A stretch of DNA of 32,000 nucleotides from Silvanigrella paludirubra (GCF_009208775.1 NZ_WFLM01000003.1:69374-101373); one strand, 5' to 3'. Shown: positions 988 through 6,172, numbered from the stretch's first letter. Notes: generated from the sequence alone by a model not told the origin. Numbers and translations are program-made.

Positions 988-1518
988 ATGGTAAAAAAGA
1001 TTATTCTTATCATATTATTATTAATTGGATGTGTGCTTGGATACGCGGCATTTCAGCCATCTGAATATGTTATTGAAAGATCCATCCGAATAACAGCATC
1101 ACAACAAACCATATTTGCAAATGTAAATGATTTAAAAAAATTTAATGAATGGAACCCTTGGGCTAAACTCGACCCACAAACAAAAATGACATTTGATGGT
1201 CCAACAGAAGGATTAGGAGCAAGTTACAAATGGGAAGGAAACAATGAAGTTGGCGCAGGACGCATGTCAATCCAAAAAAGTGTACCAAATAATTTGGTCC
1301 AAATGAAACTTGAAATGTTTAAACCTTTTGAAGACGTCAGCTTTGTTGAATTTATCTTGAAACCTGAAGGCAGGGAAACTCTTATCACTTGGAGTATGAA
1401 AGGCAATGCCAACTACATATATAAATTATTATGTTTATTTATTAATAGAGATAAATTGGTTGGAAAAGAATTTGAAAAAGGACTTTCAAACTTAAAATTA
1501 ATGTCTGAAAAGAAGTGA
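988..1518 (+). CDS. SRPBCC-superfamily (polyketide cyclase/START-like) protein with N-terminal membrane anchor or signal
   Basis: 176 aa. GGAG lies 8 nt upstream of the ATG. Hydrophobic N-terminus KKIILIILLLIGCVLGYAAF. The body has the typical length and pattern of Polyketide_cyc2/SRPBCC proteins (WNPW...GxGxxYxW..., alternating beta pattern). Family call is by recollection only. Confidence 0.55.
   Translation: MVKKIILIILLLIGCVLGYAAFQPSEYVIERSIRITASQQTIFANVNDLKKFNEWNPWAKLDPQTKMTFDGPTEGLGASYKWEGNNEVGAGRMSIQKSVPNNLVQMKLEMFKPFEDVSFVEFILKPEGRETLITWSMKGNANYIYKLLCLFINRDKLVGKEFEKGLSNLKLMSEKK
1359..1518 (+). repeat. left copy of 160-nt direct repeat (3' end of the intact SRPBCC gene)
   Basis: Aligns base for base with 6013-6172 at an offset of 4654 nt. 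I count 5 mismatches: 1365, 1394, 1512, 1515 and 1517. Confidence 0.95.
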
Positions 1519-1632: not shown

Positions 1633-2391
1633 TTACATGTAAAGACCTCCATTAACAGAAATATCTGTGCCTGTAATAAATCCCGAATCTCTGCTGGCTA
1701 AAAAAGTAGCAATTCTAGCGACTTCATAAGTAGTGCCTAAACGTTTTTTAGGGACTCGACTAATAATTATATCCAATTCAGAATTATCTAATGTGGCGGT
1801 GAGATCTGTATTTATGTACCCAGGAGATATTGTATTTACAGTAATATCATAAGACGCTAGTTCTTGTGCAAGAGATTTAGTAAATCCATACATTGCTGAC
1901 TTTGTAGAACAATAATTTGATTCTTTTGATTGACCTTTATGCCCATTTACAGATGAAATATTAATAATTCTACCGAAATTATTATTTTTCATACATTTAA
2001 CTACTGGGTGAGTAATATTATATAAACTAGAAAAGTTTACATCAACAACTGTATTCCATTCAACAAAACTCATTTCAGAAAATTCTTTGTTTCTAGTAAT
2101 TCCAACGTTATTAACAAGGACATCAATTTTACTATTTTTTTGGATGATTTCAATAATTATTTTATCTATTGCCTCTTTATCTGTAATATCTGCTCTAATA
2201 ATATTAAAGAAGTTAAGATATTTATATTTCATTAAGTTATAAAATTCGACTGCCATTATATCATTTTTTTCATATAGAGCGTATACAATTGAACCATGTT
2301 TTAAAAAATCTTCAGATATGGCTTTACCAATACCTCTTGTTCCACCCGTCACAATTACAACATTTGAATTTACTGTGCTTTTATAATTCAT
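1633..2391 (-). CDS. classical short-chain dehydrogenase/reductase (FabG-like)
   Basis: TGGTRGIGKAI cofactor motif, NNVGI, catalytic S...YCSTK (YxxxK) and the PG motif SPGYINTD. Start moved to the ATG at 2391 (MNYKST...), which overlaps the xylA stop by 11 nt. The ORF-track start at 2430 would extend further into xylA. Confidence 0.85.
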   Translation of the reverse strand: MNYKSTVNSNVVIVTGGTRGIGKAISEDFLKHGSIVYALYEKNDIMAVEFYNLMKYKYLNFFNIIRADITDKEAIDKIIIEIIQKNSKIDVLVNNVGITRNKEFSEMSFVEWNTVVDVNFSSLYNITHPVVKCMKNNNFGRIINISSVNGHKGQSKESNYCSTKSAMYGFTKSLAQELASYDITVNTISPGYINTDLTATLDNSELDIIISRVPKKRLGTTYEVARIATFLASRDSGFITGTDISVNGGLYM

Positions 2392-3706
2392 TTTTAAATT
2401 CCCATAAATATTTGTTATATAAATTTTCAATTAATTCATGATTTTCAGAAACTACTTTTGGATTCAGATTATTAAGTAACATATGATCATAGAGATCTTT
2501 TAAGGAAAGTTCACTATTCATGATGCTATTTCCAAATTTTGAGTTCCATGCAGCATATTTATTTTTTATAATATCATCAAAAAAATTATCATTTATGATC
2601 TTTTCTGCAATTAATAAACTTTTTGCTAGTAAGTCAATTCCACCAATATGACTATAAAACAAATCATTTAAATCAGTACTTTGTCTTCGCAATTTTGCGT
2701 CAAAATTAAACCCACCATTTTTAAATCCACCATGCCTTAATATCGAATATATAATAAAGACTGTTTCATCTAAATTATTTGGAAATTGATCTGTATCCCA
2801 ACCAAGCTGTGGATCACCTCTATTTGCATCAATACTTCCAAAAATATTAAGATTAAACGCAGTTTCAACTTCGTGAGCAAAAGAATGACCTGCTAATGTT
2901 GCATGATTTGCTTCGATATTTACTTTTACTTCATTTTCTAAACCATAATTTTTTAGAAATGCGAATACAGTGGAAACATCAAAATCATATTGATGTTTAG
3001 TTGGCTCACATGGTTTTGGTTCAATTAAAATATCACCTTTAAAGCCTATTTTGTGTTTGTATTCAACAACTAGATTAACAAATTTACCGAGCTGCTTAAT
3101 TTCTCTGTTCATAGATGTATTTAAAATAGAAGTATAACCCTCTCTTCCTCCCCATAAGACATAATTTTGACCATTTAATTTGTGAGTTAGATCCATGGCA
3201 TTTTTAACTTTTGCCGCAGCATAACAAAATATTTCAGGGTTAGGATTCGTAGATGCGCCAGACATAAAGCGAGGATGAGAAAATAAATTAGAAGTTCCCA
3301 ATAATAACTTGATTTTTGTATATTCCATTTTTTTTAAGATATAATCTGTATGTCGTTTTGTTTTATCAACAAATTCTGCAAACGAATCAGATTCAGATAT
3401 TAAATCCGTATCATGAAAAGAAAAATATGGAACTCCCAATTTACTAATAAACTCAAACAAAGCATCTGTTTTTGCATAATCGAGATTAGATGAATCTTTA
3501 AACCAGTTACGTTTGAATGTACTCTCTCCAAATATATCATTACCCTGCCAACAGATAGTATGCCAACAGCATATACCAATTTTTAAAATATCCTCCATAC
3601 GCTGACCTAATACAATTTTATTTGGATTATAGTATCGATAAGCTAAGTTATTTCTTGAAGAAGAACCTTCATACATGATTTTTTCAACATTAGGAAAATA
3701 AGTCAT
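2381..3706 (-). CDS. xylA: xylose isomerase, class II (long) type
   Basis: 441 aa with long blocks that I recognise from E. coli/Bacillus XylA: FSFHDTD, YVLWGGREGY, LIEPKPCEPTKHQYDFD, NIEANHATLAGHSFAHE, DANRGDPQLGWDTDQFP, NFDAKLRRQSTD. All metal and catalytic positions appear intact. Confidence 0.92.
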   Translation of the reverse strand: MTYFPNVEKIMYEGSSSRNNLAYRYYNPNKIVLGQRMEDILKIGICCWHTICWQGNDIFGESTFKRNWFKDSSNLDYAKTDALFEFISKLGVPYFSFHDTDLISESDSFAEFVDKTKRHTDYILKKMEYTKIKLLLGTSNLFSHPRFMSGASTNPNPEIFCYAAAKVKNAMDLTHKLNGQNYVLWGGREGYTSILNTSMNREIKQLGKFVNLVVEYKHKIGFKGDILIEPKPCEPTKHQYDFDVSTVFAFLKNYGLENEVKVNIEANHATLAGHSFAHEVETAFNLNIFGSIDANRGDPQLGWDTDQFPNNLDETVFIIYSILRHGGFKNGGFNFDAKLRRQSTDLNDLFYSHIGGIDLLAKSLLIAEKIINDNFFDDIIKNKYAAWNSKFGNSIMNSELSLKDLYDHMLLNNLNPKVVSENHELIENLYNKYLWEFKNEL

Positions 3707-3710
3707 TTTT

Positions 3711-5438
3711 TTATTCTCTATTAAAAGTGTTTAAGTTTTTTAAAGCTAAGGATATTTCATCAATATTAATATCATTAACAAATACATGATTCCCTATTCC
3801 ATTAGGTAACGGAACTCTTTGATAGCCATCTCTGTGTAAAACACGTTCCTGTAAACTATTATATAATTTATTAGCAGATAATTTTGTACTTATTGGCAAA
3901 CCAAATTTTTTAATTAATTCTTTTATTCTTGATAATTCAGAGATAGAAATTAAATTTCTATTAAAAGCAATGATTGACGATATTAAAATATCAACCGCTA
4001 CCGCTTCACCGTGCAACAAATTTTCATCATCTGACATTTCAATAACTAAGCTAAAGGTATGACCAAAATCTACTATTCTTTCTAAGTCAAGCTCCAGGAA
4101 GTTATATTTTAACTCTTCAATCATATCATTTATTGATATATTTAAAATATCTCTTCCTAATAAATTTTGAAATTTATCCGTAATGGAAGTTACACCATGA
4201 TTTTCTAGTAACTCAAATAAATACTTATTTTTAATAACCCCTAATTTAATAATTTCACCAACCCCATTAATTAATTCTCTATCAGGTAGTGTTCTTAAAA
4301 ATGTTGAATCAAGAATACAACATAATGGGGAAGCAAAAGATCCAATTCTGTTTTTATTTTGATTAAAATTTATTCCAGTTTTAATTCCGATTGACGCATC
4401 AATATATCCCATTAAAGTTGTAGGAATTTTAATACAAGGAATACCTCTCCTATATATACTAGCAACAAATCCAGCTAAATCCGTTAATACACCACCACCA
4501 ATTGCAACAATTGGTTGACTACGACGTTGTACACCAAAATCATCTAATATTGTAATTAATTTAATTACATTTGTAATATTTTTATTTTCTTCTCCAGATT
4601 CAAATATAATTGAGTTATATTTTATTTTAAATTTATCAAAAAAGTTATTTATCATATAAATTTGCTCTTTGGATAGTCCAGAATCTAAAATAAGAAATAC
4701 CGCGTTTATTTCTTTAAATATTTTATCAAACATGATATTACTATGGGTGCTAAAAGCATTTCTTAATTCATAAATTTTGTATTCAATAAATGAATCTGAT
4801 TTAATGCTTCCATTAATTTCATTAATAAATGATTTTCCTTCAAATTTATCAATATCGATAAACTTCATATTTGCATTACGTGCAGCTTGAAATCCTGCCT
4901 CAGAATCTTCAAAGACTAAACAATTTTCAGGTGCAACTTTGTGCCTGATGGCTGCTTCAAGAAATAAGTCTGGTTCAGGTTTACCTAATTTAACATCATT
5001 AATTGTAATAATGTCAACAAAATATTTTGTTAAATTATTTATTGCAAGCATTTTACGTATAACTTCTGTTTCTCCTCCAGAAGCTACAATTAATGGTAAA
5101 ACCCCATAATATTTTTTAATAATATTAAGTGTCTTTTCAAATGGCTTCACTTTATTTATATAATTTTTAACGAAAATTTCATCTTTAAGCGCAATCGCTT
5201 TTTTAACATCTAAGCAATAATTTAATTGATGATTTAATACTTTTACTAATTCATCACCACTCGTTCCAGCGTAAGTATCAACAAATTCTTGATTAGATAC
5301 AAAAACACAACCTAATAAACTGTAAGTATCATTCCACGCTTTATAATGCGCCCATACGGTATCCATTAAAGTTCCGTCACAATCAAATATTAAAAGCTCT
5401 GTTTTGTTAAAATCGATAAATTTTTCTAAATATTCCAC
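3711..5438 (-). CDS. fusion protein: N-terminal HAD-IA phosphatase/phosphomutase domain plus C-terminal sugar phosphate cyclase (3-dehydroquinate synthase superfamily, EEVS/DDGS-like)
   Basis: GTG start at 5438 with AAGGA 5 nt upstream. HAD motifs: I FDCDGTLMDT, II IVASGG, III GKPEPD, IV FEDSEAG. Cyclase motifs: IGGGVLTDLAGFVASIYRRGIPCIKIPTTLMGYIDASIGIKTGINF, KNRIGSF, NGVGEIIKLG, DFGHTFS, LLHGEAVAVD. KNRxG and D-A-x-x-G-x-K-T-G-x-N-F resemble 2-epi-5-epi-valiolone-synthase-type enzymes more than AroB (KNLIGAF). The stop lies 4 nt from the xylA start. Confidence 0.75.
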   Translation of the reverse strand: MEYLEKFIDFNKTELLIFDCDGTLMDTVWAHYKAWNDTYSLLGCVFVSNQEFVDTYAGTSGDELVKVLNHQLNYCLDVKKAIALKDEIFVKNYINKVKPFEKTLNIIKKYYGVLPLIVASGGETEVIRKMLAINNLTKYFVDIITINDVKLGKPEPDLFLEAAIRHKVAPENCLVFEDSEAGFQAARNANMKFIDIDKFEGKSFINEINGSIKSDSFIEYKIYELRNAFSTHSNIMFDKIFKEINAVFLILDSGLSKEQIYMINNFFDKFKIKYNSIIFESGEENKNITNVIKLITILDDFGVQRRSQPIVAIGGGVLTDLAGFVASIYRRGIPCIKIPTTLMGYIDASIGIKTGINFNQNKNRIGSFASPLCCILDSTFLRTLPDRELINGVGEIIKLGVIKNKYLFELLENHGVTSITDKFQNLLGRDILNISINDMIEELKYNFLELDLERIVDFGHTFSLVIEMSDDENLLHGEAVAVDILISSIIAFNRNLISISELSRIKELIKKFGLPISTKLSANKLYNSLQERVLHRDGYQRVPLPNGIGNHVFVNDINIDEISLALKNLNTFNRE

Positions 5439-6012
5439 TTTAATCCTTCATTAAATAAAATTTAATTTATAACAACATTATTATAAATAAAAATAGATAT
5501 ATTCTAAAATAATATAAACAAATAAAGAATATTAATAAAATAGTCATATTTTAATTTTCATATAAAATTCAAATATGAGGTAATTAAACACATATTTTAT
5601 ATGTTTTCACGATAATTATATTTAAAATAAAAAAAGTTTATTTATAAAATTAGAACATAATTTAGAATATAAACCATGCGCAGCATCATGTTACGAATAG
5701 CATTTTGCAAATATCCAGTCAAATAATAAATTGGTTTATTTTTTTTAAATATTTTACAATATTAATTATAAATTAAATCGTTTTATCTAAAATATTATTT
5801 ATTCAATAAAATGTTATGAGTAGCTCATTATAAATATGAGTTTTTATAAAATAAATTCACTCTTCTTAAAATCTATGAAAATTAACAATTACTTTTAATT
5901 TGACATTAACCATTCTTCTTTTTTATATTAGCAAATATTTTTCATCATAATATTTCCATCTTGTTTTATAACTACACAAATATTGATTATTTTTTAAATA
6001 AGTTCATTTATA

Positions 6013-6172
6013 GAAACCAGAAGGCAGGGAAACTCTTATCACTTGGAATATGAAAGGCAATGCCAACTACATATATAAATTATTATGTTTATTTATTAAT
6101 AGAGATAAATTGGTTGGAAAAGAATTTGAAAAAGGACTTTCAAACTTAAAATTAATGTCTGAAAAAAACTAA
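6013..6172 (+). pseudogene. orphan 3' fragment of the SRPBCC gene (right copy of the 160-nt direct repeat)
   Basis: Encodes KPEGRETLITWNMKGNANYIYKLLCLFINRDKLVGKEFEKGLSNLKLMSEKN*, in frame and with its own stop. An in-frame TAG (6011-6013) closes it at the homology boundary. It has no start codon or RBS. Confidence 0.9.

Follow-up and report, generated by a model that had tools for sequence, protein, structure and literature searches.

A single frame with two catalytic sets

The sequence analyzed here, referred to below as the window, is a 32,000-nucleotide (nt) stretch of the Silvanigrella paludirubra genome (GCF_009208775.1, NZ_WFLM01000003.1:69374-101373), and all positions are counted from its first letter. 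The gene under study lies on the minus strand of the window and joins a HAD-family domain to a sugar phosphate cyclase domain related to ValA. The window has a G+C content of 28.2%, compared with 29.3% for the genome, whose assembly comprises 3.94 Mb in 30 contigs. The elements of the gene are the following:

3711..5438, minus strand: fusion open reading frame (ORF) of 575 amino acids (aa), with a GTG start and a TAA stop
5444..5448, minus strand: AAGGA ribosome-binding site, 5 nt ahead of the GTG
4830..5438, minus strand: putative HAD-IA (C1 cap) phosphatase domain, aa 1-203, delimited by Pfam, curated models, homologue alignment and AlphaFold2 (AF2)
4824..4853, minus strand: junction, aa 196-205, where the HAD tail runs straight into the first cyclase strand
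3714..4823, minus strand: predicted sedoheptulose-7-phosphate-cyclase domain (ValA/EEVS-like), aa 206-575, delimited by Pfam, sequence, Foldseek and phylogenetic tree

In this assembly, the fusion is a genuine single frame in which the catalytic sets of both enzymes are intact. Pfam matches were obtained to HAD_2 at aa 16-194 (E 1e-26), DHQ_synthase at 277-390 (E 2e-38) and DHQS_C at 392-530 (E 5e-22), which, together with the two catalytic sets, confirms the preliminary description of a HAD domain joined upstream of a complete cyclase. That description also assigned a GTG start with a good AAGGA ribosome-binding site, and this assignment stands; the spacing is 5 nt, and since in the alignment the GTG falls on the first Met of paralogues that stand alone, the evidence for this start is good. 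M191 was rejected as an internal start, as no Shine-Dalgarno sequence precedes its codon and the position is conserved among HAD proteins.

The four HAD motifs are located at residues 18-23 (FDCDGT), 119-122 (ASGG), 152-157 (GKPEPD) and 177-182 (EDSEAG), and the catalytic columns (D19, D21 and T23; S120; K153; E177-D178) are invariant across 36 homologues, so that the motifs are intact, as had been claimed, and the catalytic Asp residues unsubstituted. D19 was assigned as the nucleophile and D21 as the acid/base, with S120, K153, E177 and D178 representing the remaining motifs. The domain passed the curated model TIGR01509 (58.6 against a cut-off of 29.4), and its match to PF13419 spans model positions 1-176 of 178. 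In the AF2 model of residues 1-211, the pLDDT is 94 up to approximately residue 200, and helices at residues 28-110 form a cap between motifs I and II. Motifs I-IV, a curated model and the helical cap place the domain in HAD subfamily IA (C1 cap), and the fold neighbours of the model, namely the phosphatase domain of Acinetobacter MtlD, beta-phosphoglucomutase (beta-PGM) and CbbY, are also HAD-IA proteins.

The preliminary description had considered that the HAD domain might be a mutase supplying the correct phospho-isomer, an idea that the data do not bear out. The domain failed TIGR01990, the beta-PGM equivalog model (72.9 bits against a cut-off of 189.4), and scored below the curated cut-offs of TIGR02009 and NF008000 as well. 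Where beta-PGM has R49, S116, K117 and N118, which hold the distal (second) phosphate of its bisphosphate intermediate, the alignment shows G61, G122, E123 and T124, respectively, in the HAD domain. The fusion thus resembles L. lactis PgmB (a beta-PGM) and the YqaB sugar phosphatases in its C1-cap HAD-IA fold, catalytic Asp pair, Lys and Glu-Asp, but the mutase distal-phosphate site of PgmB is absent from it. A late-acting phosphatase of the VldH type, which had also been mentioned, fared no better: the domain is of the C1-cap IA type, and a kinase is absent from the surrounding islet and from the sister cassette described below. VldH is presumably an OtsB-like (trehalose-phosphatase-like) HAD protein, and no trehalose-phosphatase model was among those listed for the HAD domain, for which the best models were beta-PGM/YqaB-type IA families. 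Overall, the HAD domain is most plausibly a sugar-phosphate monoesterase.

The cyclase domain was most similar by sequence to ValA (256 bits, compared with 199 for DDGS and 155 for dehydroquinate synthase (DHQS); 35% identity to ValA). The AF2 model, for which the alignment held 11 relatives and in which the cyclase was folded separately from the HAD domain rather than as one full-length chain, is confident from residue 206 to the C-terminus. Its best Foldseek match is the ValA structure 4P53 (TM 0.93, root-mean-square deviation 2.6 Å), and the TM values to DHQS-family structures range from 0.75 to 0.93. The GGGVxTD NAD motif (G314-D320) and the phosphate-binding K353, N363 and R454 are retained, as are E395, H460 and H476 (Glu/His/His), which we take to be the metal ligands by DHQS numbering; all of these positions are invariant among the 11 relatives. 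Matches to PF01761 and PF24621, together with GGGxxxD and Glu/His/His, place the domain in the sugar phosphate cyclase superfamily.

Within that superfamily, the domain sides with ValA at six positions (in VDFGH, HTF, HGEAV and HRDG.Q) among those that differ between ValA and DDGS in the alignments, which are the positions that this fingerprint check covered; the ValA-type active-site fingerprint was reportedly defined by Kean in 2014 at 14 sites. DDGS has Ala, HTW and HGHAV where the cyclase has Asp (at the DHQS Asn268 position), HTF and HGEAV, whereas this Asp, HGEAV, HRDG.Q and the NAD and metal motifs are common to the cyclase and ValA. The domain is also distinct from AroB, as it scored 228 on TIGR01357 against a cut-off of 305 and its R..N.GH...H box reads VDFGHTFSL; the genome has a separate aroB beside aroC on contig C10. 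That locus (715.6-718.0 kb) carries the dehydroquinate synthase as a 423-aa frame after chorismate synthase, followed by a glyoxalase-family gene, and this housekeeping enzyme itself falls under the aroB cut-off, with 205.6 bits. The cyclase of the fusion is predicted to be a sedoheptulose-7-phosphate cyclase of the EEVS type, the product of which would be 2-epi-5-epi-valiolone or an epimer. It differs from ValA in being fused to a HAD domain and in having XylA and SDR neighbours rather than a kinase, epimerase or aminotransferase.

Junction and rarity of the architecture

The preliminary description had named aa ~200-215 as the place at which an artificial join should be sought, and this site agrees with the junction found, at aa ~196-205. 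Residue 195 closes the last HAD strand, the first cyclase strand comprises residues 206-213, and the AF2 pLDDT falls below 50 at aa 194-204. Stand-alone HAD proteins of the same clade stop 8-10 residues past the equivalent of residue 197, and stand-alone cyclases, whose N-termini line up with aa ~206-210, start 4-12 residues ahead of the equivalent of residue 210; the ends of the two enzymes therefore meet at the junction, without a translated intergenic spacer. The following signals are present out of frame:

4822-4820 and 4813-4811, minus strand: off-frame ATGs, which would provide the cyclase start if one base were added
4803-4801, minus strand: off-frame TAA, which would provide the HAD stop if one base were added just past the second ATG

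If one base were added at any point of ORF nt 589-644 (~55 nt), the result would be a HAD protein of 197-218 aa with a separate cyclase frame after it, and an insertion at nt 619-644, past the first ATG, would yield a cyclase of ~370 aa opening at that ATG. Both products match the sizes of stand-alone relatives (200-219 aa for HAD and 372-386 aa for the cyclase). An overlap of HAD and cyclase genes by a few codons, of the kind seen between other genes of the operon, followed by the loss of one base is the simplest history, and the fusion most likely arose via such a single-base loss in the stop/start overlap of a HAD gene and a downstream cyclase gene.

The architecture had been described as one not known to be characterised, and searches of proteins, genomes and metagenomes recovered only this one protein with both domains. 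A word-indexed search of 5.8 billion clusters returned the window's own protein alone, as a singleton cluster on one contig, and among the best 150 matches of an exhaustive HMMER search of 1.84 billion representatives only the query itself carried both domains, a result that does not extend to a HAD domain fused to a much more distant cyclase-superfamily member, which would rank below those 150. Neither 185,579 reference genomes nor JGI metagenomes yielded a close relative when scanned, and in 60 related genomes the identity of the cyclases found did not exceed 37%. The multi-domain relatives among the best 150 were ROK-kinase + cyclase fusions or proteins with non-HAD N-terminal extensions; the HAD domain is absent from the N-terminally extended proteins of ~590-600 aa (P0265, P0230, P0266 and P0249).

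N-terminal partners are tolerated on the cyclase fold, as seen in the ROK-cyclase fusions and in AroK-AroB models. The ROK-kinase + cyclase fusions (~600-770 aa), which are frequent among the best 150 representatives, likewise place an N-terminal partner on the same cyclase family, but there the partner is a kinase able to act on the cyclase product, whereas here it strips phosphate. In Acinetobacter MtlD (mannitol-1-phosphate dehydrogenase/phosphatase, PDB 7OCN), a HAD-IA variant-3 phosphatase likewise forms the N-terminal part, ahead of a sugar-phosphate enzyme; the MtlD phosphatase acts on the phosphorylated product of its partner, whereas a DHQS-type cyclase releases a product without phosphate.

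Operon, islet and related cassettes

The fusion is the first gene of an operon, in which it is followed by xylA and then by a gene for an SDR reductase. The features that surround it in the window are as follows:

2381..3706, minus strand: xylA, canonical class II xylose isomerase, 4 nt past the fusion stop (TIGR02630, 616 bits against a cut-off of 533)
1633..2391, minus strand: SDR (FabG-like) reductase, 252 aa, whose start overlaps the end of xylA by 11 nt
5439..6012, minus strand: AT-rich operon leader, 574 nt
1359..1514, plus strand: left copy of a 156-nt direct repeat, 3′ end of an SRPBCC gene
6013..6168, plus strand: right copy of the 156-nt direct repeat, 98% identical to the left copy

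The leader gave no match in Rfam, and its promoter-like sites occur at chance level. Because this xylA is the sole xylA of the genome and no xylB (xylulokinase) was found above the cut-off, XylA does not serve xylose catabolism here. Since a XylA of 64% identity also comes after the stand-alone cyclase of the sister cassette on contig L021, the isomerase seems to have been recruited to cyclitol chemistry.

The three genes and the leader make up a 4.5-kb islet bracketed by the 156-nt direct repeat. On four metagenome contigs (L053-L056) whose flanks are 96% identical, the site is empty, with the SRPBCC gene followed by a glyoxalase gene and the 156 nt present once; given the repeat and this empty site, the islet is an insertion. 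It contains no recombinase gene, and 156 nt is unusually long for a target duplication. The adjoining VOC/glyoxalase gene was rejected as a pathway partner, as it is resident at the empty site without the islet.

Three further metagenome contigs (L050-L052) carry the 3′ part of the cyclase, xylA and the SDR gene at 87% nucleotide identity. The dN/dS values against these copies are 0.19 for the cyclase, 0.09 for xylA and 0.15 for the SDR gene, and these low values indicate that the cassette is under purifying selection. All three contigs break off within an A-rich run at window positions ~4582-4591, ~220 nt before they would reach the junction; although derived from different samples, they begin within 9 nt of one another, probably owing to an assembly break at low-complexity sequence.

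A sister cassette on contig L021 encodes, in the same order, a stand-alone 375-aa cyclase (P0003; 52% identical), a XylA (64%) and an aldo-keto reductase. P0003 is the sister of the fused cyclase domain in the maximum-likelihood tree (support 99/96); it differs in lacking a HAD domain, and the reductase of its cassette is an aldo-keto reductase rather than an SDR. A transposase-like ORF, called by eye, lies beside this cassette (L021 4293-5231), which is consistent with a mobile cassette. The next relatives in the tree are Chloroflexota cyclases of LuxS/UbiA-type cassettes. The next-closest cyclase cassettes (L019/L022) have the order TIM barrel, LuxS, cyclase, methyltransferase and UbiA in one case (Anaerolineales) and radical SAM, cyclase, Methyltransf_21, TIM barrel, LuxS and radical SAM in the other. 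The TIM barrel of the Anaerolineales cassette was considered as a XylA homologue and rejected, as there is no significant similarity.

A different gene pair occurs across the genus, consisting of a DHQS-like gene (GHTFGH type, ~375-395 aa) and an AP_endonuc_2 TIM-barrel gene (~295 aa), which may be eboD/eboE-like. It was located in this genome (contig C18:114.3-117.8 kb) and in two congeners, G004 (L028 6926-8968) and G005 (L014 3459-6321). The pair is preceded by an MFS transporter gene in this genome and by a stand-alone HAD gene in G005, and in both G004 and G005 it adjoins an SRPBCC gene, the same type of neighbour as at the islet.

Proposed function and alternative explanations

The interpretation that we favour, which we judge slightly more probable than its negation, is that the gene encodes a bifunctional enzyme composed of a HAD-IA phosphatase and a sedoheptulose 7-phosphate cyclase, that it opens an operon acquired by horizontal insertion, that it was fused via the loss of one base, and that the HAD domain is accessory. 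In this scheme, the loss of one base in the HAD/cyclase stop-start overlap would have turned two co-transcribed enzymes into one polypeptide. The NAD+- and metal-dependent cyclase would oxidise, dephosphorylate and cyclise sedoheptulose 7-phosphate to a C7 keto-cyclitol, with expulsion of the phosphate; the candidate product is 2-epi-5-epi-valiolone or an epimer. XylA works through a metal-assisted 1,2-hydride shift within an alpha-hydroxy-carbonyl, and the enzyme would here catalyse the ketol isomerisation of the cyclitol, an alpha-hydroxy-ketone, after which the SDR would reduce the ketone to give a carbasugar polyol. The HAD domain would be an accessory monoesterase that either trims a bisphosphate to the cyclase substrate or clears phosphate placed on the cyclitol by host kinases, and it would leave the cyclase's own substrate alone.

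Several observations weigh against this interpretation. The fusion is a singleton, known from one protein on one contig, a search with aa 100-330 found stand-alone HAD proteins only, and no other sequence in the collections searched spans the junction. Off-frame stops and ATGs are common in AT-rich DNA, and the one-base pattern is thus suggestive rather than proof. HAD and cyclase are weakly linked in function: four further HAD-clade members occur in unrelated contexts, no HAD gene lies within 356 nt upstream of the cyclase of the sister cassette, and the DHQS-like + TIM pair is also found without a HAD gene, both in other congeners and elsewhere in this genome. Finally, the cyclase departs from ValA at two positions, L464 (Pro in ValA) and R541 (His in ValA; Arg is DDGS-like), so that the cyclitol product proposed here is tentative in its exact structure.

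Two alternatives deny the fusion or its importance, and each is held to be fairly unlikely. The fusion could be an assembly or sequencing artefact, the real genome being one base longer at the junction and encoding a ~212-aa HAD protein and a ~370-aa cyclase in overlapping genes. The restoration of two normal-size genes by any one-base insertion in ORF nt 589-644, with an ATG for the cyclase past nt 619, the short A and T runs at the junction, the presence of the fusion in one assembly only, and the stand-alone nature of all close cyclase relatives would agree with such an error, but the runs are just 2-4 bases long and the assembly is otherwise clean, with 91% of its bases in frames of at least 100 aa and 70 frames exceeding 1000 aa within its 30 contigs. 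An error that happened to keep the two domains in frame would moreover be an unlikely coincidence, though a real mutation would give the same frame. The HAD domain could instead be a passenger, in which case a recent neutral frameshift would have attached a general sugar-phosphate phosphatase, whose gene was upstream by chance, without any metabolic coupling to the cyclase. This would account for the HAD-clade members (45-61% identical) found beside a decarboxylase gene, an ABC-F gene, GST/GFO genes and others, for the 60%-identical HAD paralogue that stands alone in the same genome, for the sister cassette without a HAD gene, and for the pairs that occur in congeners both with and without one. 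Against it, the HAD sequence lies within the islet and therefore travelled with the cassette, and a stand-alone HAD gene of the same clade (53% identical) is located directly upstream of a different DHQS-family cyclase in two further settings, a congener and metagenome contigs, which is more than expected for an unrelated gene.

The remaining alternatives assign the HAD domain a defined metabolic task. It is unlikely that the domain is a dedicated feeder that would hydrolyse sedoheptulose 1,7-bisphosphate (or a different sugar bisphosphate) to the monophosphate and pass this directly to the cyclase, as a two-step channel into a XylA-dependent carbasugar pathway not described before; the presence of CbbY-type bisphosphate phosphatases among the structural neighbours of the HAD domain bears on this idea. 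HAD hydrolases act in the validamycin and acarbose pathways, and a late-pathway phosphatase comparable to VldH or AcbJ would remove, as the last step, a phosphate restored to the cyclitol by a kinase encoded elsewhere. Acinetobacter MtlD, whose N-terminal HAD-IA domain dephosphorylates its partner's product, is a precedent, and HAD hydrolases are encoded beside EEVS genes in the K and S cyclitol clusters of Burkholderia, but in these known clusters the HAD gene is paired with a ROK kinase gene (bioRxiv 10.1101/2022.09.27.509721), whereas the islet, the sister cassette and the 87%-identical copies all lack genes for a kinase, a nucleotidyltransferase or a glycosyltransferase. With no kinase in any version of the cassette, a phosphatase would not have the role that it usually has in cyclitol pathways, and a late role is considered distinctly unlikely. 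The least probable proposal, and a disfavoured one, is a beta-PGM-like phosphomutase that would provide the cyclase with the right phospho-isomer. In its favour, beta-PGMs are the top sequence matches among solved structures, and the hinge Thr and cap His are kept as T27 and H31, but the TIGR01990 score and the replaced distal-phosphate residues argue against it, and plain phosphatases rank equally high in the fold search.

Taken alone, the fusion is a small result, an architecture unseen among billions of proteins but built from two well-known enzyme families, and, lying one base from two ordinary overlapping genes, it is a curiosity rather than a new kind of enzyme. It provides a probable case of gene fusion by single-base loss in a stop/start overlap for which unfused relatives are available for comparison. 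If it is true that the phosphatase feeds or protects the cyclase, this would explain the recurrence of HAD genes beside cyclitol genes. The more promising lead is the compact cassette to which the fusion draws attention, in which a C7 cyclase, a canonical xylose isomerase and a reductase are combined in a genome without a xylulokinase above the cut-off; purifying selection acts on this cyclase-XylA-reductase cassette, which is also found elsewhere and may produce a carbasugar not yet described.

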